Counted from the stretch's first letter, positions 548 through 41,864 are shown. The stretch is 64,000 nt of DNA from a virus (IMGVR_UViG_3300025138_000014:87330-151329), one strand, 5' to 3'. The notes: generated from the sequence alone by a model not told the origin. Made by a program: numbers and translations.

Positions 548-3043
548 TTGTCTTTTTACACATCAGTTAATCGTTACGGCAACTCTATCTTATATCGTGG
601 ATATAATGACTCTGGAGTTGCTACAGAAACAAAATATAAATTTACCCCTAAACTTTATATTCGATCTCAAGATACAAATACAGAATACAAAGCCCTAGAT
701 GGTACACCTGTAAAAGAAGTCAACTTTCCTAAAATGGCAGAAGCAAAAGAGTTTTGTGAACAGTACAAAGATATTAAAGATTTCAGCGTGTATGGTCAGA
801 CCAATTATATTCAACAGTTTATTACAGATAAGTTTCCCGGCAATATTATATTTAATCCTAAACAAGTTAATGTTGTAAACTTTGACATAGAAGTCGCTTC
901 CGATGAGGGTTTTCCTAGACCAGAAGAAGCATTGTTTCCAGTTATATCTATTGCTCTCAAGTCTAGCAAATCTTCCATATATGAAGTGTGGGGCCTTGGT
1001 GATTACGATCACGAGAAAACAGAATTGAATATGAATGGCGATCTTATTCGTTATAGAAAGTTTGATAGTGAGCAAGCACTTCTTGCCAGCTTCCATAAAT
1101 ATTGGTGTGAGAATAGACCAGATATTGTAACTGGCTGGAACTGTAGATTTTTTGATATACCATATATTATTAATAGATTGTATCGTATTGGTTCTCCAGA
1201 AGCAGTCAAAAGATTGTCTCCCTGGAACTTAGTAAATGAACGCAATACCAAAATCATGGGTAAAGAACAGCAAGGATATGAAATTGTTGGTATTCAACAA
1301 GCAGACTATCTTGAGCTGTTTAAAAAGTTTGGTTACTCTTATGGAACCCAAGAGTCATATGCATTAAATCATGTTGCATTTACTGTTCTTGGCGAGAAGA
1401 AATTATCATATGAAGAACATGGTAGTTTGCATACACTCTATGAAAAAGATCACCAAAAGTTTATTGATTATAACATTAAAGATGTTCAACTTGTTCAACG
1501 CATTGACGATAAGATGGGTCTTATTGAACTGGTACAAACTATGGCTTATCGTGCTGGTGTTAATATATCAGATACATTTGGTACTACGGCGATATGGGAT
1601 TCAATCATATATCGTTCACTAAATAGTCAAAAGATTGTTATCATGCCTATCACAGAAAAACAGAAACTACCTTACCCTGGTGGTTATGTAAAAGATCCAA
1701 AAGTTGGCATGCACGAGTGGGTTGTATCCTTTGACCTTAACTCACTATATCCAAATCTTATTGTACAATATAATATGTCTCCAGAAACAATCGTTGGTGG
1801 TTATCCCCTTGAGAATGGCGTAGAACATTATATGAACTGTGACAAAGTTGTTAGCGAATATGCTGTAGCAGCTAACGGTTCTCAATATAGAAAAGATAAG
1901 CAAGGCATTATCCCTAAAATTATTATTCAGTATTATTCAGAACGTAAAGAAGTCAAGAAGCGCATGTTAAAAGCGCAGAGTGATTATGAGAAGAATAAAA
2001 CCACAGAACTTGAAAGAGAAATCAATACACTTCATAACCAACAGATGGCTATTAAGATTTTGTTAAACAGTCTTTATGGCGCACTCGGTAATCGGTTCTT
2101 TAGATATTTTGATATGAGAATGGCCGAAGGTATTACTCTATCTGGTCAACTTTCTATCCTGTGGGCTGAACGTGCTATCAATGCAGAAATGAATAAAATT
2201 CTAAATACAACGGAGAAAGATTATGTTATTGCTATTGACACTGACTCAGTCTATATTAATTTTGGTCCTCTTATTGCTAAACTGGCGCCAGCGGACCCTG
2301 TTAAAGCACTGGACAAAATATGTAAGGAGCACTTCACTAAAATACTAGCTGACTCTTATGCTAAACTGTTTGATAATATGAATGGTTATGATAATAGAAT
2401 GGTTATGGAGCGTGAAGCAATTGCTGATAAAGCTATCTGGACTGCAAAGAAAAGATATATTTTAAACGTGCATAATAACGAAGGAGTCCAGTACAAAGAA
2501 CCTAAACTCAAGATCATGGGTATTGAAGCTGTTAAATCTTCGACACCTCAGGTTGTTAGAGACAAGTTCAAAGAAATTTTTGATGTTCTAATTAACGGTA
2601 CTGAAGTTACCACTCAGAAATACATAGCAGACTTCAGACGTGAATTCAATTCTCTACCTCCCGAAGCCGTATCATTTCCAAGAGGTGTGACTAATGTTAC
2701 AGATTGGATAGATAGAAAGACCATTTTCAAGAAAGGCTGTCCAATTCATGTTCGTGGTTCTATTCTATACAATAATACGGTCAAAAGTAAAGCAGTGGAC
2801 AAAAGATATGGTTTAATTCAGAATGGTGAGAAGATTAAGTTTGTTTATCTCAAGATGCCAAATCCAATAAAGCAAAATGTTATAGCATTTCCGCAATATC
2901 TGCCTACTGAATTAGCCCTGCATAAATACATTGACTACGATAAAATGTTTGAGAAAACTTTTATTGAACCTATTAAACCTATTCTGGACGCAATCGGATG
3001 GACTGTTGAAGATCAGATGACGCTGGAAGACTTTTTTGGATAA
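548..3043 (+). CDS. 43: family B DNA polymerase, T4 gp43-like
   Basis: Exo DIE, VTGWN..FD, YNIKD; Pol SFDLNSLYP, KILLNSLYG, DTDS; C-terminal clamp tail TLEDFFG; no intein or intron seen. Confidence 0.97.
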   Translation: MSFYTSVNRYGNSILYRGYNDSGVATETKYKFTPKLYIRSQDTNTEYKALDGTPVKEVNFPKMAEAKEFCEQYKDIKDFSVYGQTNYIQQFITDKFPGNIIFNPKQVNVVNFDIEVASDEGFPRPEEALFPVISIALKSSKSSIYEVWGLGDYDHEKTELNMNGDLIRYRKFDSEQALLASFHKYWCENRPDIVTGWNCRFFDIPYIINRLYRIGSPEAVKRLSPWNLVNERNTKIMGKEQQGYEIVGIQQADYLELFKKFGYSYGTQESYALNHVAFTVLGEKKLSYEEHGSLHTLYEKDHQKFIDYNIKDVQLVQRIDDKMGLIELVQTMAYRAGVNISDTFGTTAIWDSIIYRSLNSQKIVIMPITEKQKLPYPGGYVKDPKVGMHEWVVSFDLNSLYPNLIVQYNMSPETIVGGYPLENGVEHYMNCDKVVSEYAVAANGSQYRKDKQGIIPKIIIQYYSERKEVKKRMLKAQSDYEKNKTTELEREINTLHNQQMAIKILLNSLYGALGNRFFRYFDMRMAEGITLSGQLSILWAERAINAEMNKILNTTEKDYVIAIDTDSVYINFGPLIAKLAPADPVKALDKICKEHFTKILADSYAKLFDNMNGYDNRMVMEREAIADKAIWTAKKRYILNVHNNEGVQYKEPKLKIMGIEAVKSSTPQVVRDKFKEIFDVLINGTEVTTQKYIADFRREFNSLPPEAVSFPRGVTNVTDWIDRKTIFKKGCPIHVRGSILYNNTVKSKAVDKRYGLIQNGEKIKFVYLKMPNPIKQNVIAFPQYLPTELALHKYIDYDKMFEKTFIEPIKPILDAIGWTVEDQMTLEDFFG

Positions 3044-3051: not shown

Positions 3052-3759
3052 ATGAAACATTATATTTTTGATATTGACGGAACTTTAACTCCAAGCCGTG
3101 GCAGAATTGATCCAGAGTTTGAAACATTTTTTAAAAGTTTTATCAATAAGAATAAAGTGTCTTTAGTTACTGGGTCAGATAGACCAAAAACTTTAGAACA
3201 AATTGGTATTGAAATCTCTGATAGTGTTGATACAATGTATCAATGCTCTGGTAATCACATTTGGAAAAAAGGTAAAGAGGTATCAAGAATAGATTGGCGC
3301 TTACCACATAAAGTGGTTCAATGGCTTTTAATAACTCTTGAGAATAGCAGCTATTCAAAAAGAACCGGTGATCATCTTGAAGAAAGAGTTGGTCTTGCCA
3401 ATTTCTCCATAGTGGGAAGAAAAGCAGATGCACGTCAAAGAAAAGCATATGTAAAATATGATACTAACGTGGGGGAACGTAAGCTAATTGCTTACAGATT
3501 TAATGAAAAATTTGGTAAAAAACTTAAAGCACAGGTTGCTGGAGAAACTGGTATAGATATTATCCCACTTGGTTGTGATAAGTCTCAAATATTAAAACAG
3601 ATACCACTTGATGATACAATAATCTTTTTTGGGGATAAGACTGAACTAGGTGGCAATGACTATGAAATTGCACAAGCTGTGGATAAAAGATTAAACGGAC
3701 ACTTCCATACAGTCACTGAATGGAAACATACATATAGTATATTGAAAGAGGAAATATAA
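3052..3759 (+). CDS. HAD IIB phosphatase/phosphomannomutase-like
   Basis: FDIDGTLT, VTGSD, NFSIVGR, FFGDK..GGND, as in eukaryote-type PMM. Confidence 0.8.
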   Translation: MKHYIFDIDGTLTPSRGRIDPEFETFFKSFINKNKVSLVTGSDRPKTLEQIGIEISDSVDTMYQCSGNHIWKKGKEVSRIDWRLPHKVVQWLLITLENSSYSKRTGDHLEERVGLANFSIVGRKADARQRKAYVKYDTNVGERKLIAYRFNEKFGKKLKAQVAGETGIDIIPLGCDKSQILKQIPLDDTIIFFGDKTELGGNDYEIAQAVDKRLNGHFHTVTEWKHTYSILKEEI

Positions 3760-4067
3760 TGAACGAAGTAGCACATTACGAAGAACTTATTGCACAGTGG
3801 CACCATGACCGCAATCTAATTAACGGAAGTACCGATAAAGATCAATATATGAAGTTGATTCAAGAAGCAGGTGAGTTGTCTGATAACATCTGCAAGGGCA
3901 GAGATATTCGTGACGACATTGGTGATATGATGGTAGTATTAATTAATATTGCAGAGCGTAATAAATTAACTCTTGCAGAATGTCTTAAAGTAGCATATGA
4001 TGATATTAAAGACCGAAAGGGTAAAATGATTGACGGAGTATTTGTCAAAGAAAGTGATTTACAATAG
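3759..4067 (+). CDS. mazG: MazG-like nucleotide pyrophosphohydrolase
   Basis: KLIQEAGEL...DDIGDMMVVL...AYDDIKDRKGK. Confidence 0.85.
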   Translation: MNEVAHYEELIAQWHHDRNLINGSTDKDQYMKLIQEAGELSDNICKGRDIRDDIGDMMVVLINIAERNKLTLAECLKVAYDDIKDRKGKMIDGVFVKESDLQ

Positions 4068-4086
4068 TGTTGGATTATGTTATAAT
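4058..4086 (+). promoter_or_regulatory. early promoter
   Basis: TTTACA-17-TATAAT. Confidence 0.8.
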
Positions 4087-4105
4087 AAGACAATAAGGAG
4101 AATAC

Positions 4106-5047
4106 ATGACTGATTACACTCAACCAAAATATCCAATTTATATTATTTCTAAAGGACGTGCAGACTCTAGGTTCACATCTAAAACTTTAGATGAACTTAA
4201 TGTACCATATCGTATTGTTATTGAGCAATCTGAATACAAAGATTATAATAAGAATATTCCAGCAGAGAAAATTTTGGTATTACCTGAAGGGTTTCGTGAA
4301 AATCCAAATTATGCTTTTCCAGATGCAGCTGGTCGGATGGGTGGTTCTATTCCAGCCAGAAACTTTGTATGGGAACACTCCATATCTGAAGGTCACAAGC
4401 GGCATTGGATTATGGATGATAACATTAGGCACTTTTATAGAGTGCATCAAAATCTAAAAACAATTGTTACATCTGGTAATACTATTAGAGCATGTGAAGA
4501 TTTCACAGATCGTTTTAAAGATGTAGCAATGTCTGGTATGAACTATCAGTATTTTGTTCCAGCTTCCCAAGCTAAAAAAGCATACACATTAAACACTAGA
4601 GTGTATTCTTGTATTCTACTCCGCAATGATATTAAACATCGTTGGCGTGGTAGATATAATGAAGATACTGATTTGAGCATAAATATTTTAAAAGACAATC
4701 ATAATACAATTTTATTTAATGCATTTGTTTGTGGAAAAATGACTACTCTTACAATGGGTGGCGGTAATACCGATAATGTTTATATTGATCAAGACAATAG
4801 ACGGACCTTTGCTGAAGCACTAAAAGAACAGCATCCCGATATTGTAGAAATAGTTTATAGGTACCGACGTTGGCACCATCACGTTGATTACTCTGGTTTT
4901 AAAAAGAATAAACTTGAGTTACGTGATGACTATGTTAAGAAAACTGGTATAAATGAATATGGAATGAAGATGGTTAAATTAACCGAAGCACAGCACGAGT
5001 TGCATAAAGCGACCTTCGGCAATACGGAGAATAGATATTATGACTAA
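4106..5047 (+). CDS. GT-A fold glycosyltransferase, TET/JBP-associated (TAGT/GREB1-like) DNA-modifying type
   Basis: YPIYIISKGRA, ARNFVWEHS, WIMDDNI, YSCIL, YNEDTDLS, GGNT. Confidence 0.8.
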   Translation: MTDYTQPKYPIYIISKGRADSRFTSKTLDELNVPYRIVIEQSEYKDYNKNIPAEKILVLPEGFRENPNYAFPDAAGRMGGSIPARNFVWEHSISEGHKRHWIMDDNIRHFYRVHQNLKTIVTSGNTIRACEDFTDRFKDVAMSGMNYQYFVPASQAKKAYTLNTRVYSCILLRNDIKHRWRGRYNEDTDLSINILKDNHNTILFNAFVCGKMTTLTMGGGNTDNVYIDQDNRRTFAEALKEQHPDIVEIVYRYRRWHHHVDYSGFKKNKLELRDDYVKKTGINEYGMKMVKLTEAQHELHKATFGNTENRYYD

Positions 5048-5315
5048 AAAGAGTAAAGCATCAAGCTTGTTTGTACTTGATGGAACCGAGGAAGATTACG
5101 CACAAAACTACTGGGAAGATATGCCAGAGTTTGAGCAGAATGATTTAGATATTTATGGATCAATGAATATTGCTTTTCGTACAGAAGAGGACTTCAGAGC
5201 ATTTGTTCAACTTATTGAACAGCCGAGTGTATCTATTAAATCACGTGGAGTTTACTACCCAGTTAGAGCAAAGAGTGAGAACACATTGCTCCGTTGGATG
5301 CCTGATGAAGAATAA
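5040..5315 (+). CDS. small acidic partner protein of the glycosyltransferase
   Basis: Overlaps GT stop; W-x-x-MPEF-x-Q motif. Confidence 0.65.
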   Translation: MTKKSKASSLFVLDGTEEDYAQNYWEDMPEFEQNDLDIYGSMNIAFRTEEDFRAFVQLIEQPSVSIKSRGVYYPVRAKSENTLLRWMPDEE

Positions 5316-5317
5316 AC

Positions 5318-5346
5318 TTTACAGAAACCTTTAAATGTGATATAAT
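5318..5346 (+). promoter_or_regulatory. early promoter
   Basis: TTTACA-17-TATAAT. Confidence 0.75.
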
Positions 5347-5352
5347 TATATT

Positions 5353-6273
5353 ATGATAGACATTACAATATTTAAAAATCAATTCGACAATAAGACTCAT
5401 CGTAAGATGAGCTTTGCCGATAAAGATCAGTTTCTTGGATTTCTATCACAGTTATCAAAGAAACCCTTGGAGGGTAAAAGAAATGCGCAACTTATTAGTC
5501 CGGCTGTATATGTCGATGGTTCTACTAGAGCCAACAAAAATGTTTCTCATTGGGCAGGTTGGTGTGCTGTTGATGTTGACGATTATGTCTTTGAAGGAAA
5601 ACTGAAGGAAGTTTTAGATGAAAAACTCTCATGGGGGTATATTTGCTACAGTACTGCTAGCAGCACGATTGAACAACCAAAATTTAGATTGGTTTTCCAA
5701 ATCAAAGGAAACGTCCCCGCTGAAAGAATTAGACACTTCTGGTTTGCGCTCAACCAAGAACTTGAAGGAATGGGAGATAAACAGACTAAGGATCTCAGCC
5801 GAATGTACTTCATACCGGCCGAGTACAAAGATGCGAATAATTTCTTTTTCAGTAATCCTGGCGTGTCTATTGATCCCTATGAGTTAATGTCTCGGCATGA
5901 GTATAATGAAAAGAAAAACTCAAATAACTTTTTGGATAGACTACCAGAAAGTTTACAAGAACAAGTAATTGCTTATAGACAAACTCAATTAACTAATACC
6001 GATATCACTTGGACTTCTTATCTTGATTGCCCATTCTGGCCAAAACACTTAGCAACAGAATATATGATGATTGCTGGAGAAGGTTGGTATCGTAAGATGT
6101 ATGCAATTATGGTTAGAGTAGCAGCTACTGCTATCTATAGAGAGTATCCAATTACTGCTGATGAAATTGCTACACTATGTAAACAATTTGATATGGCTAA
6201 CGGTAACTGGTATGAAAACCGACCAATGAGAACTGAAGCAGATCGTGCTTTAGAATATGTACACAGAAATTAA
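5353..6273 (+). CDS. AEP-superfamily primase/polymerase-like protein
   Basis: R..NV, AVDVDD (DxD), YSTASS..PKFRLVF, KDLSRMYF. Confidence 0.65.
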   Translation: MIDITIFKNQFDNKTHRKMSFADKDQFLGFLSQLSKKPLEGKRNAQLISPAVYVDGSTRANKNVSHWAGWCAVDVDDYVFEGKLKEVLDEKLSWGYICYSTASSTIEQPKFRLVFQIKGNVPAERIRHFWFALNQELEGMGDKQTKDLSRMYFIPAEYKDANNFFFSNPGVSIDPYELMSRHEYNEKKNSNNFLDRLPESLQEQVIAYRQTQLTNTDITWTSYLDCPFWPKHLATEYMMIAGEGWYRKMYAIMVRVAATAIYREYPITADEIATLCKQFDMANGNWYENRPMRTEADRALEYVHRN

Positions 6274-6276
6274 TGA

Positions 6277-6305
6277 TTTACAATAACCGAAAAATGTGAT
6301 ATACT
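6277..6305 (+). promoter_or_regulatory. early promoter
   Basis: TTTACA-17-TATACT. Confidence 0.7.
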
Positions 6306-6350
6306 TACAGAATATTATTCACTAAATTTATATTATGGAGATTACAGAAT

Positions 6351-6857
6351 ATGGAGACTATTGCTCAACGTATGCGCAAAGTTGGTACTTACCTCGGATA
6401 CTTTGATATCCAACCCTATGAGAATGTGAATGAAGATAGTCCTAATTTTGGTGTATCTTACGACAGACTTATTTTCCACGCAGTACTTAAACGGCGAGAG
6501 TTTATCGCCTTTGGTGATCTAGTGTATTTTATGTACATTAACAATGATCTAGTCAAAGTCGGTAAAGCCGAAGGTGCTATTGGCTGGGCTGGTAGAATGA
6601 ACACTTACAGAAAAGATCCTGCTGACGATGCTACCAATAAAAAAATTATGGATATTATGAAAGAGGACTATAGTGTTGTAGAACCCATTTATGTGTATGC
6701 TATTTCAGTTCCAAGAGTTTCTTCAGATTACTATTGCAACTTAACAGATTCTGCAGTATGTGTATCAATACCACGTGCAGGTAAAGTTGAGACATATCTC
6801 ACTGAATGTGTAGAGGCTCAAGGTGAACAATTAATCTTTTGCAATCAAAAAACCTAA
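6351..6857 (+). CDS. GIY-YIG endonuclease, T4 endonuclease II (DenA)-like
   Basis: LVYFMYINNDLVKVGKA...RMNTYR resembles DenA VIY.IAINDELVYIGK..RINYYR. Confidence 0.6.
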   Translation: METIAQRMRKVGTYLGYFDIQPYENVNEDSPNFGVSYDRLIFHAVLKRREFIAFGDLVYFMYINNDLVKVGKAEGAIGWAGRMNTYRKDPADDATNKKIMDIMKEDYSVVEPIYVYAISVPRVSSDYYCNLTDSAVCVSIPRAGKVETYLTECVEAQGEQLIFCNQKT

Positions 6858-6897
6858 TCATATATATAATGTATAAACAAAATTTGAAGGATATAAC

Positions 6898-7734
6898 ATG
6901 AAGAACAAAGTTGCCATTCTCGGTCACGGGTATGTAGGTAAAGCAGTAGAGTACGGCTTTTCAAATAAAAAGAATAAAATCCAATTAATTGATCCACATC
7001 TTTATGATAACTGTGTTGAAGATATTGAAGATCCAACTGTATCATTTGTATGTGTACCTACACCGATGAGTAGTGATGGCAATATTGATTCTAGTATCGT
7101 CGAAGAAGTAACCGAACAATTGATGATTCGTACTTCTGGTTTAATTGTTATCAAGTCTACAGTAATACCATCAGTAGTGAAAAGATTAAGCGATAAAAAT
7201 CATAGAGTAATTTATAACCCAGAATTTTTAACTGAAAGAAATGCTCTTATTGATTTTGTTAATCCTCCAATGCACGTATTTGGCGGACACGAAAATGAGA
7301 CAGAGCAGCTACATAAATTCTATACAACTAATAGCCGTTGTAAACCTGCTCCAATTTTTAAGATGAGTGCTGCAGAAGCAGCTTTTGTAAAATACGGAAT
7401 TAATAGTTTCCTTGCAACAAAGGTACTATGGTTCAATCAATATAAGGATATGATAGATGACTTTGGAGCTGATTTTGATAACATTTCTAGCGCTATCGGT
7501 TCTGATCCCAGAATTGGCCAATCTCACACTCAAGTTCCTGGCCCTGACGGTCGTGCTGGGTTTGGCGGCGCTTGTTTCCCCAAGGATACATCAGCTCTTA
7601 TCGGATTTGATCACGGTAATATCCTCAGCGTTCTAAAATTAGTCGTGCAGGAAAACAGTGTTTATCGTAACCAGTATGAGTTAGATAGCCGAGAAAAAGA
7701 ACAGAATGTTGTTTACATTGAGTCAAATGTATAG
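6898..7734 (+). CDS. ugd: UDP-glucose 6-dehydrogenase (short form)
   Basis: GHGYVG, CVPTP, IKST, NPEFL, GFGGACFPKD. Confidence 0.9.
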   Translation: MKNKVAILGHGYVGKAVEYGFSNKKNKIQLIDPHLYDNCVEDIEDPTVSFVCVPTPMSSDGNIDSSIVEEVTEQLMIRTSGLIVIKSTVIPSVVKRLSDKNHRVIYNPEFLTERNALIDFVNPPMHVFGGHENETEQLHKFYTTNSRCKPAPIFKMSAAEAAFVKYGINSFLATKVLWFNQYKDMIDDFGADFDNISSAIGSDPRIGQSHTQVPGPDGRAGFGGACFPKDTSALIGFDHGNILSVLKLVVQENSVYRNQYELDSREKEQNVVYIESNV

Positions 7735-7740
7735 TATAAT
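7712..7740 (+). promoter_or_regulatory. early promoter
   Basis: TTTACA-17-TATAAT. Confidence 0.75.
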
Positions 7741-7763
7741 AGACAGATTATAAGGAAGTTAAA

Positions 7764-8732
7764 ATGAAAAAACATATAATGGTAACAGGTGGTGCAGGCT
7801 TTATTGCTTACCATCTAATACAAAAACTTATTAAAGATGGCTATGAAGTATCTGCATTCGACAACTACAATGATTATTATGATCCAAAGTTGAAACATAA
7901 ACGTGCAGAGGAATTAATGTCTCTTGTTAATGTAGATGTACTTAATTGTGATCTAAAACAAGAAGAGGATCTGACTGATCTAGTTAGTGCTTACAAACCA
8001 GATGCTATTATCCATTTAGCTGCTTATGCTGGCGTAAGACATTCTTTGAGTGAACCACAAACATACATTGATAATAATATTACTGGAACACAAAATCTTA
8101 TTAATGCTTGTGAAAAAGCAGATGTTCAGCATGTAGTGTATGCTTCAACTTCTTGTACTATGGCGGGTAATGAATTACCGTGGAATGAAGATGAGAAAAC
8201 TGGTTATCAATTGAACCCATATGGCTATTCTAAATCAGCTAATGAAAACCAGATGATGTCCAGTAAAATTAAATTTACAACTGGTCTTCGGTTCTTTACT
8301 GTTTACGGACCATGGGGTCGCCCAGATATGGCTCTATTTGACTTTACTAAAGATATTATTGCAGGTACACCAATCAAGCTATTTAACTATGGCGACATGG
8401 TTCGTGATTTTACTTATGTAGATGATATTGTACAAGGCGTTGGCTTAGTTCTAAAAGATAGTTTTGATCGTGATAGTGAAGATACATTCGGCGAGATATA
8501 TAATATTGGTTACGGAGACCAAGTTAAGTTATTTGATTTTGTAACTGAGATTGAAGCTAATCTTGGTCGTGTAGCACAACGCGAGTTAGTTAAAATGCAT
8601 CCAGCCGATACACGTGAAACTTGGTCCGATACAACTAAAATTCGGAAGCTAGGTTACAATCCTACTACATCTATTGAAGATGGAGTGGCTAATTTTATAA
8701 CATGGTATAAAGGATATTATAATGTCAACTGA
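7764..8732 (+). CDS. NAD-dependent epimerase, UDP-glucuronate 4-epimerase-like
   Basis: TGGAGFI, DNYNDYYDPKLK, HLAAYAGVRHS, YGYSK, RFFTVYGPWGRPDMA, RDFTYVDD. Confidence 0.88.
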   Translation: MKKHIMVTGGAGFIAYHLIQKLIKDGYEVSAFDNYNDYYDPKLKHKRAEELMSLVNVDVLNCDLKQEEDLTDLVSAYKPDAIIHLAAYAGVRHSLSEPQTYIDNNITGTQNLINACEKADVQHVVYASTSCTMAGNELPWNEDEKTGYQLNPYGYSKSANENQMMSSKIKFTTGLRFFTVYGPWGRPDMALFDFTKDIIAGTPIKLFNYGDMVRDFTYVDDIVQGVGLVLKDSFDRDSEDTFGEIYNIGYGDQVKLFDFVTEIEANLGRVAQRELVKMHPADTRETWSDTTKIRKLGYNPTTSIEDGVANFITWYKGYYNVN

Positions 8733-8892
8733 TGCAGCAACACAACTTATGACTGAAGCCGCTAAATTTCATGGAATTACATATGCACAACTTCGGCATA
8801 GAATTACATCTGGTGGCGAAAGCCTTATGCAACCATATTATGAAAGCAAAAGCTGGAAAGATTTATATAAAGTAGCAGAACAATGCGAGTAG
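8722..8892 (+). CDS. small hypothetical protein (56 aa, not in ORF track)
   Basis: ATG with AGGA SD, fills gap between epimerase and cytidylyltransferase. Confidence 0.55.
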   Translation: MSTDAATQLMTEAAKFHGITYAQLRHRITSGGESLMQPYYESKSWKDLYKVAEQCE

Positions 8893-9305
8893 GTATTACA
8901 GCCTCAACCTTTGATTTGCTTCATGCTGGTCACGTTGCTATGCTTCGAGAAGCTAAAGAGCAATGTGATCACCTAATCTGTGCACTACAGATTGATCCTA
9001 CAATTGATAGAATAGAAAAGAACAAACCTATTCAAACTGTAGTTGAAAGATATACTCAGCTGGCAGCAGTAAGATATGTAGATGAAGTTATTGTATATTC
9101 TACAGAACAAGACTTACTAGATATTTTACAAATGTATCCAATTAATGTACGGATCTTAGGAGACGAATACAAGCTAAAAGAATTTACAGGAAAAAATGAA
9201 TGCCGTAAACTCGGCATTGAATTACATTTTAATAGCAGAAATCACAGGTTCTCAACATCAGATTTAAGAGAACGTGTCTGCAATGAGAGGAAAAAAACCA
9301 AATGA
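8883..9305 (+). CDS. glycerol-3-phosphate-type cytidylyltransferase
   Basis: FDLLHAGH, ERY.QL.A..YVDE, R.H.FSTS. Confidence 0.88.
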   Translation: MRVGITASTFDLLHAGHVAMLREAKEQCDHLICALQIDPTIDRIEKNKPIQTVVERYTQLAAVRYVDEVIVYSTEQDLLDILQMYPINVRILGDEYKLKEFTGKNECRKLGIELHFNSRNHRFSTSDLRERVCNERKKTK

Positions 9306-10342
9306 GTTCCATTATGGATAAACTCCAGAAGAATACTAAGTTGAAAAATACTGAAATTTTATCTGAGTCAAAATTTTTTAATGAAAAAGATATGACTACA
9401 ACTTCTGTTCCGATGGTCAATGTGGCACTATCAGGATCAATGGACGGTGGATTATCCCCAGGACTAACAGTACTTGCTGGTCCATCTAAACACTTTAAAA
9501 CTTCCTTTGCTTTACTTATGGCAGGTGCTTATCTGGATAAACATCCGAATGCAGTAATGTTGTTTTACGACTCAGAGTTTGGTTCACCACAATCTTACTT
9601 TAAACAATTTGGTATTGATACAAAACGGGTACTTCATACACCAATTACTAATGTAGAAGAACTAAAATTTGACGTAGTAAATCAACTTGAAGGTCTTGAC
9701 CGAAAAGATGAAGTAATTATTGTTATTGACTCAATCGGTAATCTTGCTTCAAAGAAAGAACTTGAAGATGCTCAGAATGAAAAGTCTGTAGCAGATATGT
9801 CTCGTGCTAAACAGCTGAAGTCTTTGTTTAGAATGTGTACTCCATATCTTGCTATGAAAAATATTTCTATGCTAGCAGTCAATCACACTTATCAAGAAAT
9901 CGGTTTATTCCCTAAAGCAATTGTTTCTGGTGGAACTGGTATATATTATTCAGCTGATAATATTTGGATTATCGGTCGCCGCCAGAATAAAAAGGGTATG
10001 GAAGTTACTGGTTATGATTTTGTTATTAATGTTGAGAAGTCTCGGTTTGTTAAAGAGAAATCAAAGATTCCGATTACAGTATCATGGGAAGGCGGAGTAC
10101 AAACTTATTCAGGTTTGTTAGAAGTTGCAATGCAAGGTGAGTATGTAAGGAAACCAGCAAACGGTTGGTATGAACCAATTAACCCAGAAACAGGTGAAGT
10201 GTTGGCTGGCAAGGCTCGTGAAGCACAGACCCTAGAAAAAGAGTTTTGGGATCCAGTATTTGAGCAAACCAACTTTAAAGAATTTATCAAAAAACAGTTT
10301 ACAATTGGCCATAAAGCTGATATAGTATTAGAGGTAGAATAA
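9302..10342 (+). CDS. uvsX: UvsX RecA-like recombinase
   Basis: AGPSKHFKT, YDSEFG, DSIGNLASKKE, DMSRAK. Confidence 0.96.
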   Translation: MSSIMDKLQKNTKLKNTEILSESKFFNEKDMTTTSVPMVNVALSGSMDGGLSPGLTVLAGPSKHFKTSFALLMAGAYLDKHPNAVMLFYDSEFGSPQSYFKQFGIDTKRVLHTPITNVEELKFDVVNQLEGLDRKDEVIIVIDSIGNLASKKELEDAQNEKSVADMSRAKQLKSLFRMCTPYLAMKNISMLAVNHTYQEIGLFPKAIVSGGTGIYYSADNIWIIGRRQNKKGMEVTGYDFVINVEKSRFVKEKSKIPITVSWEGGVQTYSGLLEVAMQGEYVRKPANGWYEPINPETGEVLAGKAREAQTLEKEFWDPVFEQTNFKEFIKKQFTIGHKADIVLEVE

Positions 10343-12067: not shown

Positions 12068-12250
12068 ATGTTACCTGATGAAATGGAAGCAGAAAAAAAT
12101 AGAAAGATTATATTAGCTCAAGCACAACGAATAGAGATACTAGAAAAAAATGTAGCTGATTTGCAACAACAACTATATGAAGAATATATCCATAATATAA
12201 AAAGGTATAAAAGGGTGAAAGATTATGAGAGCAGGGAAGGTCTGGGGTAG
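12068..12250 (+). CDS. hypothetical coiled-coil protein
   Basis: SD GGAG, ORF in operon. Confidence 0.55.
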   Translation: MLPDEMEAEKNRKIILAQAQRIEILEKNVADLQQQLYEEYIHNIKRYKRVKDYESREGLG

Positions 12251-12563
12251 TACAGAACTTATAGAAGCAAATAATGCTTTGGAGTTTCATAGAATTGAAT
12301 TTGAAACTGGTACGTGTTCTAAACATAAACACGAATTTAAATGGAATGGCTTTTATGTTGAATCTGGTATTATGATGATCAGAGTTTGGCAGAATGATTA
12401 TGATTTAGTTGATGAAACTGTTTTACAAGCAGGGGAATATACTAAAGTCAAACCAGGTGTTTATCACCAATTTGTAGGAATTGAGCCAGGTGTAGCCTTT
12501 GAGTTATATTGGGCAGAATTTAACCATAACGATATTATTAGAGAGACAGTAGGTCACGAATGA
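12225..12563 (+). CDS. cupin-domain protein
   Basis: CSKHKH..KWNGFYVESG, PGVYHQF. Confidence 0.8.
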   Translation: MRAGKVWGSTELIEANNALEFHRIEFETGTCSKHKHEFKWNGFYVESGIMMIRVWQNDYDLVDETVLQAGEYTKVKPGVYHQFVGIEPGVAFELYWAEFNHNDIIRETVGHE

Positions 12564-13228
12564 TTAAAGCAAAGCTAATGGGTTACACTCAAGTACATGA
12601 GTCACCCGCATTAGGTAATATTCAAGAACTTGTAGCATTTTGTGCAAGAGTATCTAATCCCTCAAATCAAATTAATAGTGAGACAAGTGAAAAACTCATT
12701 AAGTATTTGATAAAACATAAACATTGGTCTCCACTTGAAATGGTTTCGGCAACCATGGAAGTTAAGTGTACACGAGATATTGCACGACAGCTTTTACGGC
12801 ATCGGTCATTCTCTTTTCAGGAATTCAGTCAACGCTATGCTGATCCAGCAGATCAAGAGTCGCTATATGTATTGTCAGAAGCTAGGCTTCAAGATACAAA
12901 AAATAGACAAAACAGCATTGATTCAGATGATGAAGACTTGCAAGCCGCATGGAATTTACAACAACAAAATGTAATTGATCAAGCTAAAAAAGCATATGAC
13001 TTTGCAATCTTTAATGGAATTGCCAAGGAGCAAGCACGTAAAGTGTTACCCGAAGGACTTACTATGTCTACATTATATGTAAACGGAACACTTCGTTCTT
13101 GGATACACTATATAGAACTAAGGAGTGCAAACGGTACTCAGAAAGAACATATGGAATTAGCTAGGGCTTGCGGAGAAGCAATAGCAATTATATTTCCACT
13201 AGCAAAAAATTTAACATCAGGAGACTAA
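12560..13228 (+). CDS. thyX: flavin-dependent thymidylate synthase
   Basis: HWSPLE, RQLLRHRSFSFQEFSQRY, AR.VLP, LR..NGTQKEH. Confidence 0.95.
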   Translation: MIKAKLMGYTQVHESPALGNIQELVAFCARVSNPSNQINSETSEKLIKYLIKHKHWSPLEMVSATMEVKCTRDIARQLLRHRSFSFQEFSQRYADPADQESLYVLSEARLQDTKNRQNSIDSDDEDLQAAWNLQQQNVIDQAKKAYDFAIFNGIAKEQARKVLPEGLTMSTLYVNGTLRSWIHYIELRSANGTQKEHMELARACGEAIAIIFPLAKNLTSGD

Positions 13229-17884: not shown

Positions 17885-18118
17885 ATGGATAGAGTACGGG
17901 TTAATTCTAATACTCAGGCATCAAGTTTAATAGAGCCAAAAAGAACTATGGTTGACCCGCCTAACGGATGGAGATACGGGTTCCCTAAAATGCTTCCTCT
18001 AATTCCAAAAGAAGGTAAAGATTTTAAGTTAACAAGGTGGTTAGTATCAGAAGGATATCCACAACATGAGATAACAGACTTAGGTGCTGCATTTCATGTA
18101 AGGGTATGGGAAGTATAA
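17885..18118 (+). CDS. hypothetical protein
   Basis: DPPNGWRYGFPK motif. Confidence 0.7.
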   Translation: MDRVRVNSNTQASSLIEPKRTMVDPPNGWRYGFPKMLPLIPKEGKDFKLTRWLVSEGYPQHEITDLGAAFHVRVWEV

Positions 18119-18120
18119 GG

Positions 18121-18597
18121 ATGAATAGAGAAAAGCAATTATGGAAAAAGGTAAAGAAAATGGATCTAGGAAACCCGATAATCACGACACTAGTTGGACT
18201 GGTTATTTTTTATATTGGACTTAAAACATTCTCGGGTGGTATGAAGTCCATGGGTAATATGGAACATCTAAATTGGTTCTTAGGTAGTCCAATATATATG
18301 TTCTTCGGTGGTATTATTATGACTTTGTTATGGCAATCCTCTTCTTTGTCTACAACGGCTATTATTGCTTTAGTTGCTTCAGGAGCACTCCCGCTTCCAG
18401 CTGCAATTGCATGTGTGCTAGGTGCAAATCTCGGAACTACTGGAACCATATGGTTAGCTGGTTTCTTTGTATCTGATGGAATGCCAAAGGGAGATACATT
18501 AAGAATTGCTATGGCTCATACTGGAATGAACTTACTTATGGCTCTTGCTTTACTACCATTTGTTGGAAGAATAGGTCAATTTTTAATGAAGTTTTAG
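18121..18597 (+). CDS. Na/Pi cotransporter-family protein (single repeat)
   Basis: LLWQSSSLSTTAIIALV, LGANLGTT, AHT..N. Confidence 0.85.
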   Translation: MNREKQLWKKVKKMDLGNPIITTLVGLVIFYIGLKTFSGGMKSMGNMEHLNWFLGSPIYMFFGGIIMTLLWQSSSLSTTAIIALVASGALPLPAAIACVLGANLGTTGTIWLAGFFVSDGMPKGDTLRIAMAHTGMNLLMALALLPFVGRIGQFLMKF

Positions 18598-20604: not shown

Positions 20605-21828
20605 ATGTTAACCTTTAGTCAACTCAAAGAACAAAAAAACATGCACATGACTCATATAGAGGATAAAGTCCTTTATGGTGGTGTGAAAGGAACAAGACAG
20701 GCTATACTTGCACTTCGAGAGTTGCGAGATATGCTAAAAGGAGAACATGATGGAACAGTTAGTGTTAAATGGGATGGTGCTCCTGCTATTTTTGCTGGCA
20801 TTGATCCGTCTGACGGTAAGTTTTTTGTTGCTAAAAAATCAATATTCAATAAAAATCCTAAAGTCTACAAGTCGGCATCTGATGTCAATTCTGATACTAC
20901 AGGTGATCTTGCTCAAAAGCTGGTGCTTGCTCTAAAGTATCTACCAGAGTTAGGTATCACAGGTGTTATTCAAGGCGACTATTTATTTGAACAATCAGAC
21001 TTAAAGAAAGAAAAAATCAAAGGAGATGACTATGTCACTTTCCACCCTAATACAATTCTATACGCAATCCCAGCCAACTCTCAAGAAGCAAAAGAAGTAC
21101 AATCTGCTAAACTGGGTATTGTCTGGCATACAACATATAATGGCGCAAGTTTTCAAGAGATGAGAGCATCGTACGGCGTGAATGTATCTAAATTTAAAAA
21201 GTCCAAAAACGTGTGGTCACAAGATGCTATGTTAACTGATATGACCAACTATACTATGTCAAAATCAGAAACGGAGACTGTAAATGATCATCTACAAAAA
21301 GCTGGTAAACTTTTTAACCAGATTAATTCAACTACCCTTAAAACTCTTGAAGCTAATCAAGAGTTGGCTAAACTCATTGAAATGTTCAATAATACTTATG
21401 TTCGGAAGGGTGAAATCGTTAGTAGTCCGGCTGCTCATGCTACCAAGCTTGTTACTTGGATATCTGAAAGGTATGCTAAGGAAATAACTAAGTTAAAGAC
21501 CGAGAAGGGAAAAGCAGGTAAACAAGCCAAACTAGATAGTATTCTGAGTTTCTTTTCTGGGTCTAATAAAGTATCATTAATTAAGATGTTTGAATTACAG
21601 CAAACCATTGTTTTGGCTAAACTAAACCTTATAAATATACTTAATAAGCTATCAAAGACAAAAACTTTTGTTAAGACCAAAAACGGATATAAGACGACTG
21701 GTCCAGAAGGTTACGTTGCTATAGATAGACTTGGTGGTGGTGCTGTTAAAATAGTTGATAGGATGGAATTTTCCTACAATAACTTCTCAGCTGATATATT
21801 AAAGGGATGGGATAAACCAGGAAGGTAA
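20605..21828 (+). CDS. ligase-like covalent nucleotidyltransferase-fold protein (DUF6267-like)
   Basis: VKWDGAPA (motif I), QGD, EGYV, VKIVDR; N-terminus MLTFSQLKE. Confidence 0.6.
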   Translation: MLTFSQLKEQKNMHMTHIEDKVLYGGVKGTRQAILALRELRDMLKGEHDGTVSVKWDGAPAIFAGIDPSDGKFFVAKKSIFNKNPKVYKSASDVNSDTTGDLAQKLVLALKYLPELGITGVIQGDYLFEQSDLKKEKIKGDDYVTFHPNTILYAIPANSQEAKEVQSAKLGIVWHTTYNGASFQEMRASYGVNVSKFKKSKNVWSQDAMLTDMTNYTMSKSETETVNDHLQKAGKLFNQINSTTLKTLEANQELAKLIEMFNNTYVRKGEIVSSPAAHATKLVTWISERYAKEITKLKTEKGKAGKQAKLDSILSFFSGSNKVSLIKMFELQQTIVLAKLNLINILNKLSKTKTFVKTKNGYKTTGPEGYVAIDRLGGGAVKIVDRMEFSYNNFSADILKGWDKPGR

Positions 21829-21831
21829 AAG

Positions 21832-22269
21832 ATGACTAAGTCATTAGAAGAAATACGTGAGAACCGTATTGTAGAAGAAAAGTGTGAAGATTGCGGTTGC
21901 GACATGGACAATCCAAAAGACGATTGTGATTGTAGTAACCATACGAATGTGGATGAAGCACTAACTATTTCACAGCGCCGTAATAAGTCAATCAGCATGA
22001 AAAGAAATAAAGCAAAAGTTGCTATTGGTAGAAAACGTGCCGCGAAAAAGATGGCTAGTAGTGCAGTTATTGGCAAGCGTGCTCAAAGACAAGCACGTAA
22101 TCAGATGGCTAAAAAGTTCACTAAAGATGTACCAAAAAGTGATTTAAGTCCAGCGAGAAAAGCTGCAATTGAGAAACGCTTAGATAAGATGAAAGGGCGT
22201 ATTAATAGAATAGCCAAGAAATTGGTTAAAGACGTCCGTAGAAAAGAAATTGAAAGAAAGCGCGGCTAG
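21832..22269 (+). CDS. basic putative internal virion protein
   Basis: MTKSLEEIRE N-terminus, CxxCxC..CDC, Lys/Arg-rich C-half. Confidence 0.65.
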   Translation: MTKSLEEIRENRIVEEKCEDCGCDMDNPKDDCDCSNHTNVDEALTISQRRNKSISMKRNKAKVAIGRKRAAKKMASSAVIGKRAQRQARNQMAKKFTKDVPKSDLSPARKAAIEKRLDKMKGRINRIAKKLVKDVRRKEIERKRG

Positions 22270-22272
22270 ATT

Positions 22273-23217
22273 ATGAAGTATAGTTTTTCCGACTATTTAA
22301 TTGAAGCGGAAGGTGCGGTATATTTTACTTTTGGTAGAATGAACCCACCAACCGAAGGTCATGGTAAGTTACTTGATAAATTATCAAGTTCTGCCAGAAA
22401 TGCTCCTTATATGGTATTCCTATCTCAAACAAATGATAAGAATAAAAACCCACTACAGTATAAAGATAAAATAAAATTTGTTAGAAAAATGTTTCCAAAA
22501 CATGCACGACAAATTATACTTGATACCAAAATTAAAACTCCAATGCATGCCTTAGACCACTTATATAACAAAGGTTATAAAAAAGTTGTTATGATTGCAG
22601 GTAGTGATAGAGTAGTAGAATGGGATCTTCGACTTAATAAATACAACGGAAAAAAGAGACACGAAGGTTTCTATAATTTTGAAGGTGGTATTAAAGTTGT
22701 ATCAGCTGGAATTAGAGACCCAGACTCAAAAGATGTAGAAGGTTATTCTGGTACTAAGCAAAGAGAATCAGCTAAGGCCAATGACTTTCAAACATTCTCA
22801 CTAGCACTTCCAAGAACAATGTCTGATAAAGATGCTAAAACTCTTTTCAATACTGTTCGGACTGGCATGGGTCTCAAAGAAGAAAAAGCATTTAAAAACC
22901 ACGTTGAATTTAACCCTGTTTCAGAAACTCGTGAGGCATATGTCTCTGGAGATTATCTGAAAGAAGGCGATAAAGTGATCGTTAAAGATAGTGAAGAAAT
23001 TTGCAAAGTTACTATGTTAGGTGCAAATTATGTTATAGTAGAATCCAGTTCAGGTAAAAGATCACGTAAGTGGCTTGATGCAGTTGAATTGTTAAAAGAA
23101 AAGAAAAAAGATCAACCTGAAGAAGGAACACCTGCAGCTACAGAAAAAATGAAAAAAGCTGTAGCTGGTCAGAAATCGTTTAAAGCATATATCGGAGCAA
23201 CAAATGAAAAAGTTTAA
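22273..23217 (+). CDS. HIGH-superfamily nucleotidyltransferase (cytidylyl/adenylyltransferase-like)
   Basis: FTFGRMNPPTEGH, NPL, AGSDRV, SAG.RDPD, SGTK.R. Confidence 0.8.
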   Translation: MKYSFSDYLIEAEGAVYFTFGRMNPPTEGHGKLLDKLSSSARNAPYMVFLSQTNDKNKNPLQYKDKIKFVRKMFPKHARQIILDTKIKTPMHALDHLYNKGYKKVVMIAGSDRVVEWDLRLNKYNGKKRHEGFYNFEGGIKVVSAGIRDPDSKDVEGYSGTKQRESAKANDFQTFSLALPRTMSDKDAKTLFNTVRTGMGLKEEKAFKNHVEFNPVSETREAYVSGDYLKEGDKVIVKDSEEICKVTMLGANYVIVESSSGKRSRKWLDAVELLKEKKKDQPEEGTPAATEKMKKAVAGQKSFKAYIGATNEKV

Positions 23218-23647: not shown

Positions 23648-24190
23648 ATGATGAAATTCCAAACATTTAACGAGTCGGCCCTGTCCGCGCTTAGAACAGC
23701 CACTAAAGCACATGCAGGACAAACTAGAAAAAGCGGCGGTGCGTATATTAACCACCCTAAAGAAGTTGCCCGCTTTGTAAAACAATTTAAAAAGTCGAAT
23801 AACTTATCAGCTATGATTCAAGCTGCTTATCTTCACGACACTCTTGAAGATACTGATACGACATATCAAGACTTAGTTAAACAGTTCGGCGCTCTTGTAG
23901 CTGATATGGTCCAAGAATTAACTACCGATAAAGCAGCATCTGATGCAATTGGTAAAGGTGAATACATTGCAAATAAAATGGCTAAAATGTCCAGTTGGGC
24001 ACTAGTTGTTAAGTTAGCAGACAGACTTGCCAATGTGCAAGATATAGATACGAGACCAGCAGACTTTCAAAAGAAGTATGCAGCTCAAACTACATTAGCA
24101 ATTAAAAAATTAAGAAGTGATCGGTACTTGAGTAAAACTCATAACAAGATTATAACTGCAATTGAGAAGAAAATTAAAGAATATGTGTAA
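23648..24190 (+). CDS. HD-domain small alarmone hydrolase (Mesh1/SpoT-HD)
   Basis: AHAGQTRK.GG.YINHP, AAYLHDTLEDT, VQELT, VKLADRLAN. Confidence 0.9.
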   Translation: MMKFQTFNESALSALRTATKAHAGQTRKSGGAYINHPKEVARFVKQFKKSNNLSAMIQAAYLHDTLEDTDTTYQDLVKQFGALVADMVQELTTDKAASDAIGKGEYIANKMAKMSSWALVVKLADRLANVQDIDTRPADFQKKYAAQTTLAIKKLRSDRYLSKTHNKIITAIEKKIKEYV

Positions 24191-39548: not shown

Positions 39549-40218
39549 AAATATTATCCTACAACACTTTGATGGTGAGTTAAGAGAACTCGACAAACTA
39601 TCAATGGAAAATATTAAAGCATATGCAGATAGTGTTGGTGCAGATTACCAGTTGGTTACAGGAAAGCCGTTTAGAGAACATCTAACGTCTCCGTGCCAAA
39701 AAGTATTTATGATAGATGAGAAATGGGACGAATACGACCAGGTTTTAATGTTAGACATTGATATGTTTGCAACTAAAAAGTGTCCAGATATATTTACAAC
39801 TGAAAAGGGTATTGGTCTTTATAATCCTATACAACAAGGTTTGCATAGAAAGATTGTAAATCAATACGGAATGCAATCATCTAGAATGTCTCCATATTGG
39901 GGCGGCGCAATCTATAAAATACATAAACATATGAGACAAAGTTTGCGTAAATGTTTAGGTGGAAACGAACAATGGATGAATGTATATAATCAGCCCTATC
40001 ATTTTGAAGATGAAGGAATATTTCATACTCTTGCTATGAGAGCAGGCATTGGTTATATTTCTTCATTGAATATGGATCCACGTTGGTGTTATGATAACTA
40101 TCTGCCCGAACCAGAGAATGCATATATGATACACATTAGAACTAAAATTACACCAAATGGACCGAAACAAGAAAAGATTAAAAATTACCAAGAAATGGTT
40201 AAAAGAGGTATATTATGA
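39541..40218 (+). CDS. GT-A glycosyltransferase
   Basis: YADSVGADY, LDIDMF, DEG, H near C-terminus. Confidence 0.72.
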   Translation: MSKNIILQHFDGELRELDKLSMENIKAYADSVGADYQLVTGKPFREHLTSPCQKVFMIDEKWDEYDQVLMLDIDMFATKKCPDIFTTEKGIGLYNPIQQGLHRKIVNQYGMQSSRMSPYWGGAIYKIHKHMRQSLRKCLGGNEQWMNVYNQPYHFEDEGIFHTLAMRAGIGYISSLNMDPRWCYDNYLPEPENAYMIHIRTKITPNGPKQEKIKNYQEMVKRGIL

Positions 40219-41740: not shown

Positions 41741-41864
41741 TGAAGACCCCACAAGAAAAGAACTGACTAAAATGTTTAGGGATATGAAATTAGAATATCA
41801 TGTAACCAGCGAAGTCGACGGACTTTTAAACGTACATTTTATAGTTAAGCCAGAAAGCAAATAA

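Follow-up and report, generated by a model that had tools for sequence, protein, structure and literature searches.

A candidate uronic acid glycosylation cassette with a split TAGT-family transferase between the polymerase and recombinase genes of a marine T4-like phage

The stretch of DNA analysed here (hereafter the window) makes up the final 64 kb of an IMG/VR virus contig of 151,329 bp (G000:C1:87330-151329) from a marine T4-like phage, a member of a Kyanoviridae-related clade in which the slot between the DNA polymerase gene (gp43) and the recombinase gene (uvsX) is hypervariable. In the window this slot is filled by eleven closely packed open reading frames (ORFs), all on the + strand and several with overlapping stop and start codons, among them a TAGT-family glycosyltransferase with a small partner protein, and a set of putative sugar-nucleotide enzymes that includes a shortened member of the UDP-glucose dehydrogenase (Ugd) family; we describe the slot as a candidate glycosylation cassette, perhaps directed at the phage's own DNA. 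Its left border is formed by the family-B polymerase gp43 (548-3043, +; PF00136, PF03104 and phrog_262) and its right border by the UvsX recombinase (9302-10342, +; phrog_97, E 7e-87), 3′ of which come a gp40-like ORF and then the gp41 helicase (phrog_19, E 1.5e-125). A preliminary description of the locus had assigned functions to the genes between these borders, and nearly all of its labels were borne out by Pfam, PHROG, PDB and fold matches.

The larger of the two transferase genes (4106-5047, +), the predicted catalytic subunit, clearly falls by profile comparison within the TAGT family of GT-A type glycosyltransferases: it spans the PF20691 profile from end to end (positions 1-205 of 205; 146 bits against a cut-off of 27.5, E 1.9e-42), matches phrog_842 at E 1.7e-41, and carries a DxD motif (HWIMDDN) whose residues D104 and D105 are invariant in 11 homologues. 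The protein is basic (pI 8.95), and its closest homologues from isolates are those of Aeromonas phages 65 and Aeh1, Vibrio phage Kuja and Tenacibaculum phage PTm1; when the region was compared with isolate phages at the nucleotide level there was no match, and relatives were found at the protein level only. The TAGT stop codon is overlapped by 8 nt by an ORF of 91 aa (5040-5315, +), which is present together with the TAGT gene in every one of the 21 TAGT-bearing loci of our comparative set (80 viral loci, fetched with the short Ugd as probe). Profile comparison aligns the 91-aa protein with the first ~110 residues of the TAGT from phage 65 (hhalign 97.6%, E 4e-12) and likewise with the N-terminus of the PTm1 TAGT (hhalign 93.8%), such that the window appears to encode as a separate gene what is elsewhere the N-terminal domain of a fused TAGT; we refer to this protein hereafter as the adaptor. 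Copies from relatives show 55-80% identity to the window's TAGT and 31-70% to its adaptor, with many invariant residues in both.

A model of the TAGT–adaptor complex scored 0.80, against 0.07 for the best control (in calibration, the mark applied is reached by 58 of the 80 solved complexes and by 2 of the 110 mismatched pairs), with the caveat that the halves of split genes tend to pass a test of this kind. The model runs have at least 68% of contacts in common, with a partner pLDDT of at least 67, and the modelled interface uses the invariant adaptor motifs W-x2-MP-x-F-x-Q and LLRW; folded alone, the adaptor gives a poor model (pLDDT 54.5). We know of no comparable TAGT–adaptor complex that has been solved, and the model supports binding of the two proteins, short of showing it. 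On co-occurrence, gene overlap, profile homology and modelling combined, we regard the adaptor as a true partner of the TAGT and the predicted transferase as a two-gene enzyme, in keeping with the TAGT-type glycosyltransferase and coupled small partner proposed earlier. A further adaptor element, an N-terminal LFxLxG, is invariant, lies outside the modelled interface and is not present in the fused forms.

The adaptor also aligns with the C-terminus of a ParB-domain protein (hhalign 98.9%). Among 120 longer adaptor-bearing database proteins that were listed, most of those with a precomputed Pfam domain have either a TAGT or a ParB nucleotide-binding domain; the adaptor domain is C-terminal in both ParB-bearing proteins checked, one of which has the order GT(DXD)-ParB-adaptor. 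For ParB-like proteins, a partnership with DNA-modifying dioxygenases of phages has been established by experiment (PMC13229309), and the split adaptor, with its fusions to ParB proteins elsewhere, gives a tangible starting point for asking how such transferases are recruited.

The sugar-nucleotide enzymes predicted in the slot begin with a eukaryotic-type, phosphomannomutase-like (PMM-like) HAD-IIB protein (3052-3759, +; PF03332, 97 bits), whose best PDB matches are phosphomannomutases (E 4e-27), enzymes that take sugar-6-P to sugar-1-P; in relatives this gene lies either at the present slot or 3′ of gp41. The Ugd-family NDP-sugar 6-dehydrogenase (6898-7734, +; 278 aa) matches PF00984 (58 bits) and PF03721 (67.5 bits, profile positions 73-182 only), scores 147 bits against TIGR03026, under the cut-off of 189.8, and ends ~50 residues after the catalytic cysteine, before the C-terminal UDP-binding domain (PF03720), for which there is no match anywhere in the genome at E ≤1. 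It retains the GxGxxG motif (ILGHGYVG, with G9, G11 and G14 invariant) and the catalytic GFGGACFPKD, and C226, K175, N180 and D230 are invariant across 19 homologues. The same length recurs in at least 95 viral relatives, 45-71% identical, which makes the short Ugd a stable family and not a product of decay; the earlier label of UDP-glucose dehydrogenase stands as regards family and catalytic residues, but the window's protein is a short form that lacks the UDP-binding domain. A 256-aa short Ugd is also present in Campylobacter phage CP220 (L124, 14033-14803), near a QueE-like radical SAM gene and a few kb from a cytidylyltransferase-domain protein, and the domain-truncated form is thus not confined to marine phages.

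Immediately downstream lies an SDR of UDP-glucuronate 4-epimerase type (7764-8732, +; PF01370, 171 bits). Its top PDB match, 5u4q (264 bits), is deposited as a dTDP-glucose dehydratase, an identity that could not be checked; thereafter the UDP-glucuronate 4-epimerases BcUGAepi (6zl6, 153 bits) and MoeE5 (117) score above the best GalE (106) and UXS (70), and no NCBIfam equivalog cut-off is reached. The catalytic Tyr and Lys align with Y149 and K153 of BcUGAepi (extended-SDR fold), the Arg of GPWGRPDMA aligns with Arg185, and an S-T-S-C stretch aligns with S125-T126-S127-S128, one Ser being replaced by Cys. In BcUGAepi, Arg185 binds the carboxylate of galacturonic acid (GalA), and the Thr126/Ser127/Ser128 network is likewise carboxylate-binding (PMC12338863). 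The earlier assignment as a UDP-glucuronate 4-epimerase-like enzyme holds on these signature residues, the protein grouping with UDP-glucuronic acid (UDP-GlcA) 4-epimerases and lying closer to UGAepi than to GalE. The set is completed by a small cytidylyltransferase-fold nucleotidyltransferase (8883-9305, +; HldE domain II/TagD/ECT-like), which matches PF01467 at 54.8 bits (cut-off 21) and the PDB entries 3elb and 1coz, and which stays below the equivalog cut-offs of both TIGR02199 (rfaE_dom_II; 76.8 vs 181.5) and TIGR01518 (TagD; 63.4 vs 165.4). Beyond the slot, a 112-aa cupin (Cupin_2, with the PHROG label "cysteine dioxygenase"; 12225-12563, 5′ of the thymidylate synthase gene thyX) may be part of the sugar pathway, by analogy with a homologue that in loci of the type of the relative G004 lies within the sugar cluster, between a membrane protein gene and Ugd.

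Eleven exact matches to TTTACA-N17-TATAAT, all on the + strand, occur in the window (at 493, 4058, 5318, 7712, 13488, 15034, 28173, 32918, 49408, 51488 and 59808), where 0.06 would be expected by chance, and from their sequence they look like the early sigma-70-type promoter set of the phage. The gp43, TAGT, AEP-like and SDR genes each lie just 3′ of such a site (493-521, 4058-4086, 5318-5346 and 7712-7740), and given these four exact promoter-like sites the gp43–uvsX block would be a set of early transcription units.

We propose that the interval may be an early-expressed glycosylation cassette occupying a hypervariable slot. The PMM-like mutase would yield a sugar-1-P, from which the small nucleotidyltransferase may form the NDP-sugar; C6 would then be oxidised by the short dehydrogenase and GlcA converted to GalA by the 4-epimerase-type SDR, and the TAGT (4106-5047) with its adaptor (5040-5315) would form the heterodimeric transferase. 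The most likely use would be to decorate the phage's own DNA with uronic acid as it is replicated or shortly thereafter, and so to shield it from host nucleases. What the analysis establishes is the assignment to families, the retained signature residues, the link between TAGT and partner, the gene order across relatives and the completeness of the genome. We infer DNA as the acceptor, UDP-GlcA or UDP-GalA as the donor and this order of steps; for DNA as acceptor there is indirect support in the repeated fusion of the adaptor domain to ParB domains and in the clamp-tail-like end of a second TAGT (see below). That the heterodimer glycosylates DNA with a phage-made uronic acid is a tentative reading in which our confidence stands somewhat below one half, mainly because an unknown acceptor is required. 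The preliminary description had likewise suggested glucuronyl- or galacturonyl-decorated bases, and the TAGT, its partner, the epimerase and the slot all point that way; the lack of an acceptor-making enzyme, the missing UDP domain of the Ugd and a sugar core that reaches beyond DNA glycosyltransferases point the other.

In T4, the slot between gene 43 and uvsX holds dCMP hydroxymethylase and beta-gt, and the clade of the present phage appears to use this position in a comparable manner. One group of sister loci (L039, L042-L047, L052 and L069) reads nucleotidyltransferase – dCMP hydroxymethylase – dCMP deaminase – alpha-glucosyltransferase (alpha-GT) – SDR – Ugd – uvsX, in which the hydroxymethylase shares 54% identity with the gp42 of T4-like Klebsiella phages and the alpha-GT, a match to PF11440 (E 1e-54), shares 33% with T2 a-gt; the earlier comparison with the T4 gene 42/beta-gt slot was thereby substantiated, with gp42 and alpha-GT set beside the same Ugd and SDR. 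Two further loci (L015 and L018) have additional GT-B enzymes. In three others (L028 5096-7464, equivalent to ~77.2-79.6 kb of the relative G004; L008; L026), KdsA-like, KdsB-like and polytopic membrane proteins (the last with a weak PHO4-like match) are inserted between the AEP-like gene and Ugd, and there is no glycosyltransferase in the slot; a 330-aa ORF that replaces the TAGT in G004-type loci was considered as a transferase and rejected, being a polytopic membrane protein with no recognisable glycosyltransferase. Phage C48C1, the closest complete relative (isolate-level), on which we found nothing relevant in the literature, has the order gp43 – Dam methylase – AEP – SDR – Ugd – uvsX, the methyltransferase beside gp43 being Dam-type, with no C5 type. 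The same phage carries a TET/JBP gene (472 aa), a 344-aa ORF and a UDP-galactopyranose mutase gene, all annotated as hypothetical (L092, OQ984149, 49583-53030), which together resemble a cluster for base-J-like or galactofuranosyl modification of DNA.

Across the 80 loci, the SDR is found in 74, the nucleotidyltransferase in 55, the AEP-like gene in 46 and the TAGT with its adaptor in 21, and in most of them Ugd and SDR adjoin uvsX. The distant but 100% complete genome G003 has TAGT-adaptor-Ugd-nucleotidyltransferase-SDR as a single abutting block beside ribonucleotide reductase, and Vibrio phage Kuja (Ackermannviridae) has independently combined two fused TAGTs with a full-length Ugd and an epimerase. 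The synteny of ugd, epimerase and TAGT raised in the preliminary description is thus realised as one block in G003, but Ugd–SDR, in 74 of the 80 loci, extends well beyond the 21 with a TAGT. We read the gene content of the gp43–uvsX slot as that of the DNA-modification locus of the clade, and the uronate core as recurring with DNA-type transferases, yet not confined to them. The clade, one of abundant marine T4-like phages, keeps this core by its replication genes and swaps cassettes beside it (TAGT with adaptor, gp42 with alpha-GT, GT-B enzymes, Kdo genes)—a natural experiment in the evolution of DNA glycan diversity.

The gene content of the whole genome bears directly on the acceptor. The first 51 nt and last 51 nt of the contig are identical at 50 of 51 positions, and the contig and its relative G004 (91% complete) each run across the other's ends; the overlap and the mutual end-spanning together indicate an effectively complete, circular genome of ~151.3 kb, and the record labelled linear and 71% complete is most likely a complete circular assembly. 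Missing enzymes hidden in the 29% that CheckV counts as absent were ruled out on the same grounds. The preliminary description saw no base hydroxymethylase or dioxygenase in the window, which proved true of the entire circular genome, and the search it proposed for dCMP hydroxymethylase, TET/JBP or dUMP hydroxymethylase in the remainder came back empty. The thymidylate synthase that is present, a flavin-dependent ThyX (12560-13228, +; PF02511, 150.7 bits; phrog_85), would by its family supply ordinary dTMP. A tblastn search of the present genome with the TET/JBP protein of C48C1 and its two neighbours gave chance-level matches only, and Pfam scans of the genes that are phage-specific or shared with G003 only returned IMP dehydrogenase/GMP reductase, phosphoenolpyruvate (PEP) carboxykinase, an HD domain, a Na/Pi-cotransporter fragment and several unknowns, with no base-modifying family.

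Several of these results weigh against a uronic acid on DNA. PF00303 (thymidylate synthase/hydroxymethylase/5hoC synthase), PF12851 (TET/JBP) and PF00145 (C5-methyltransferase) are all absent from the circular genome; G003, with the same five-gene block, is likewise without PF00303 and PF12851, and Vibrio phage 1.076.O, whose fused TAGT sits among virion genes, has neither a thymidylate-synthase homologue nor TET in its partial genome. Phage 65, for its part, has a single thymidylate synthase, high-scoring and ordinary-looking. The Ugd-SDR(-nucleotidyltransferase) core is far commoner than the TAGT, many loci having no DNA glycosyltransferase in the slot, and a phage Ugd is missing from most of the isolates whose TAGTs are closest (Aeromonas, Tenacibaculum and several Vibrio phages). 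In G004, the closest near-complete relative, the slot reads PMM-MazG-AEP-KdsA-KdsB-membrane protein-Ugd-SDR-nucleotidyltransferase, and neither TAGT, alpha-GT, thymidylate-synthase homologue nor TET was found. The loss of the UDP-binding domain leaves the substrate of the Ugd uncertain and UDP-GlcA synthesis a prediction from family and catalytic residues; TagD/HldE-II-type nucleotidyltransferases are not, to our knowledge, known to make UDP-hexoses; and two GT25 and one GT8-like glycosyltransferase elsewhere in the genome could consume the sugars. The gap is one of DNA-type transferases and a dedicated donor pathway in a complete genome where none of the known enzymes would make the acceptor: either the acceptor chemistry is new, or a large group of "solitary" TAGTs does not act on DNA.

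That group is sizeable. TAGT denotes the family of the T2/T6 beta-glucosyl-HMC-alpha-glucosyltransferase, whose characterised members act on DNA, and of 753 phage genomes, 288 have a solitary TAGT, for which no function has been assigned (PMC13216743). The present phage resembles these in having a TAGT without alpha-GT or beta-GT, and no association of a TAGT with an acceptor-making enzyme or an alpha- or beta-GT is seen in its genome; it differs in encoding the N-terminal domain as a separate gene, in having a uronate pathway alongside it in the slot, and in a second TAGT whose C-terminus resembles a clamp-binding tail (see below). With the T-even system, which in T4 comprises gp42, gp56, alpha-gt and beta-gt, it has in common the slot, the T2/T6 transferase family and a MazG-fold pyrophosphatase, and its sister phages carry gp42 and alpha-GT there; the present genome, however, is without gp42, alpha-GT and beta-GT and so falls outside the T-even 5-hydroxymethylcytosine (5hmC) system, the second glucose that the T2/T6 TAGT adds goes onto glucosyl-5hmC, an acceptor this phage could not make, and a uronic acid, not glucose, is its probable donor.

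Acidic sugars on phage DNA are not new in kind, and the acidic modification for which the preliminary description knew no example from T-even phages has precedents in published systems. The DNA of phage SP-15 carries phosphoglucuronolactone and glucose on 5-dihydroxypentyluracil, with a cluster containing Ugd, PMM, a nucleotidyltransferase and glycosyltransferases (PMC5977210). The parallel lies in phage Ugd, PMM, nucleotidyltransferase and glycosyltransferases linked to uronic acid on DNA, the SP-15 Ugd being a weak homologue of the window's own; SP-15 differs in starting from hydroxymethyl-dUMP via a thymidylate-synthase homologue, in using teichoic-acid-type transferases and in being an unrelated Bacillus myovirus. 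Phage glycosyltransferases expressed in E. coli put hexuronic acid (HexA), Kdo and heptose on 5hmC, and some strictly need a partner epimerase, one such pair installing HexA; in the same work, ~65% of ~25,000 glycosyltransferase contigs had no neighbouring base-modifying enzyme, Kdo/heptose clusters contained a HAD/kinase enzyme and a cytidylyltransferase, and clusters often lay beside DNA polymerase, clamp or ParB genes (bioRxiv 10.1101/2023.12.21.572611). The subclass II clusters of that metavirome set pair a GT-A DNA-type transferase with a nucleotide-sugar epimerase, as in the present phage. They adjoin a C5-methyltransferase plus 5mYOX/TET, or a thymidylate-synthase homologue, whereas the present genome has none of these, would make the uronate itself with a domain-truncated Ugd, and has its transferase split into catalytic subunit and adaptor. 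RB69-type phages encode their own UDP-arabinose pathway (PMC13326640), and the arabinosyl-5-hydroxycytosine clusters of RB69, DLP3 and their relatives are similar to the present locus in setting an NDP-sugar pathway (isomerase, kinase/nucleotidyltransferase, HAD phosphatase) beside DNA glycosyltransferases in a T4-like phage; they differ in their GT-B transferases, in UDP-arabinofuranose as donor and in a thymidylate-synthase-type 5-hydroxy-dCMP synthase, which is absent here. What is new is the conserved, domain-truncated Ugd core, the swapping of cassettes at the T4 gene-42 position, the split adaptor common to ParB proteins, and the presence of two TAGTs in a complete genome that has no known route to an acceptor.

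The uronate genes might instead serve glycans other than DNA, those of the host envelope (lipopolysaccharide (LPS) core-like GalA, heptose and Kdo) or of virion proteins, with the transferases at 38.7-51.5 kb, GT25 and GT8-like ones among them, doing the work and the TAGT plus adaptor an unrelated cassette in the same slot. We hold this to be unlikely, though it accommodates the many relatives that keep the core with no DNA glycosyltransferase in the slot (G004 having KdsA, KdsB and a membrane protein there), the separate promoter of the TAGT–adaptor pair, and the best family match of the nucleotidyltransferase, which is to the heptose-1-P adenylyltransferase domain. The glycosyltransferase island (38760-51484) comprises a GT8-like gene at 38760, GT25 genes at 42661 and 49442, a nucleoside-binding lipoprotein gene just 5′ of the second TAGT and a 734-aa ORF without family match, and about half of it is common to G004 (38760, 39541, 40215, 42661, 49442 and 50085). 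None of the island is found in G003 or C48C1, however, both of which have Ugd–SDR: in G003 the only adjacent transferase is the TAGT–adaptor of the abutting block, and C48C1 pairs Ugd–SDR with its cluster of TET/JBP, 344-aa ORF and UDP-galactopyranose mutase. Sister phages, moreover, set gp42 and alpha-GT directly against SDR–Ugd. The presence of Kdo, heptose or GalA genes was also considered as proof of LPS remodelling and set aside as not decisive, all three sugar types having been found on phage-modified DNA, such that an LPS-like gene set is no argument for LPS.

If the TAGT and adaptor do act on DNA, the donor could be supplied by the host (UDP-glucose, for instance) and the sugar would then not be acidic, the uronate module serving another transferase such as the second TAGT (44400-45338) or another purpose. 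The T2/T6 family member does use UDP-glucose, most isolates with the closest TAGT homologues get by with no Ugd of their own, and in the window the TAGT–adaptor pair would be transcribed from a promoter of its own and is set apart from Ugd by the AEP-like and 168-aa genes; but the same genes are contiguous in G003, Kuja combines TAGTs with Ugd and an epimerase, and the published epimerase-dependent DNA glycosyltransferases include the HexA-installing pair, and we consider a host donor improbable. Little credence at all can be given to the cluster as a decaying, non-functional remnant, with a truncated Ugd, a lost hydroxymethylase and genes that no longer act together. The missing Ugd domain and the missing acceptor-making enzyme would suit such a remnant, but the short Ugd keeps every catalytic residue in a family of constant length, many TAGT and adaptor residues are invariant across diverged copies, and all frames are open and translationally coupled.

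The second, divergent TAGT-family gene (44400-45338, +) matches PF20691 at 37.4 bits (cut-off 27.5) and phrog_842 at E 9e-17, and lies directly 3′ of a Bmp/PnrA-type nucleoside-binding lipoprotein gene (43376-44434). Its C-terminus, SLSEFF (45318-45338), fits a tail pattern [ST]-L-x-[DEN]-F-F-(G) that is also seen at the end of gp43 (TLEDFFG, 3020-3043) and of a 121-aa phrog_19233 protein (51641-52006; SLENFFG, 51983-52006), with a weaker version, VEEFF (33950-33970), in a 5′-3′ exonuclease; homologues of the second TAGT end in NTLF, SLENHFK and TLDEFLK. The C-terminal tail of T4-type phage polymerases binds the gp45 clamp. T4 alpha-GT binds gp45 too (PMC13216743), and the shared tail may serve to bind the sliding clamp and so be a mark of replisome clients. 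By analogy the second TAGT, and perhaps the N-terminal peptide of the adaptor, would dock on the clamp. That both TAGTs are tethered to the replisome and act on a novel type of acceptor, be it a canonical base or the product of an unrecognised precursor-making enzyme, strikes us as a long shot. As a further option under this reading, the Ugd, having no UDP-binding domain, would oxidise a sugar already on the DNA and not a nucleotide sugar. With sugars on their DNA, phages can evade restriction enzymes and CRISPR, and such DNA also affects sequencing, cloning and phage engineering.

Between these genes the slot holds ORFs with other probable roles. A MazG-like nucleoside triphosphate pyrophosphohydrolase (3759-4067, +; phrog_715, E 2e-37, with phrog_1992 also strong) scores 19.6 bits against Pfam MazG, just under the cut-off of 22, and is 86-89% identical in relatives. 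The AEP-like protein (5353-6273, +), which the preliminary description had counted in the sugar pathway, does have the predicted primase fold: its AlphaFold model (pLDDT 86) finds the RepB′ primase 3h20 (Foldseek E 1.8e-5) and the S-2L PrimPol 6zp9 (E 2.8e-4), and a DxD motif (D74/D76) is invariant, while the conserved motif-II His is not among the invariant columns. Its family profile matched nothing in the PDB by sequence, relatives being given by the fold search only. The gene is kept in 46 loci and in phage C48C1; with a primase fold and conservation independent of the transferases, it was dropped as a pathway member and is probably a replication gene. The 168-aa ORF (6351-6857, +), present in only 8 related loci, had been called a DenA-like nuclease: the ORF is there, but its one profile match, to phrog_1111, is marginal (E 9.6e-4), a GIY-YIG-like motif is seen by eye only, and no Pfam or NCBIfam match was obtained, so that a GIY-YIG-type nuclease is at most possible. 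A 56-aa ORF between SDR and nucleotidyltransferase (8722-8892, +) has no family match and is conserved in position, with 51-56% identical copies in L020, L021, L026 and L072.

Outside the slot, an IMP dehydrogenase/GMP reductase-family gene (G000:C1:84221-85324, L126; PF00478, E 1e-68) lies in the replication region just 5′ of the window and is absent from G003, G004 and C48C1. The auxiliary metabolic genes seen encode an ATP-dependent PEP carboxykinase (52389-53591; PF01293, E 3e-89), an HD_4 domain protein (23648-24190) and a Na/Pi-cotransporter fragment (18106-18597). At 20605-23217, a phrog_455 protein (407 aa), a 145-aa ORF and a "cytidyltransferase" (phrog_3041/phrog_395, 314 aa) follow one another, and the phrog_455 and phrog_3041/phrog_395 genes could, as a guess from their family matches, form an NAD-salvage-like pair.

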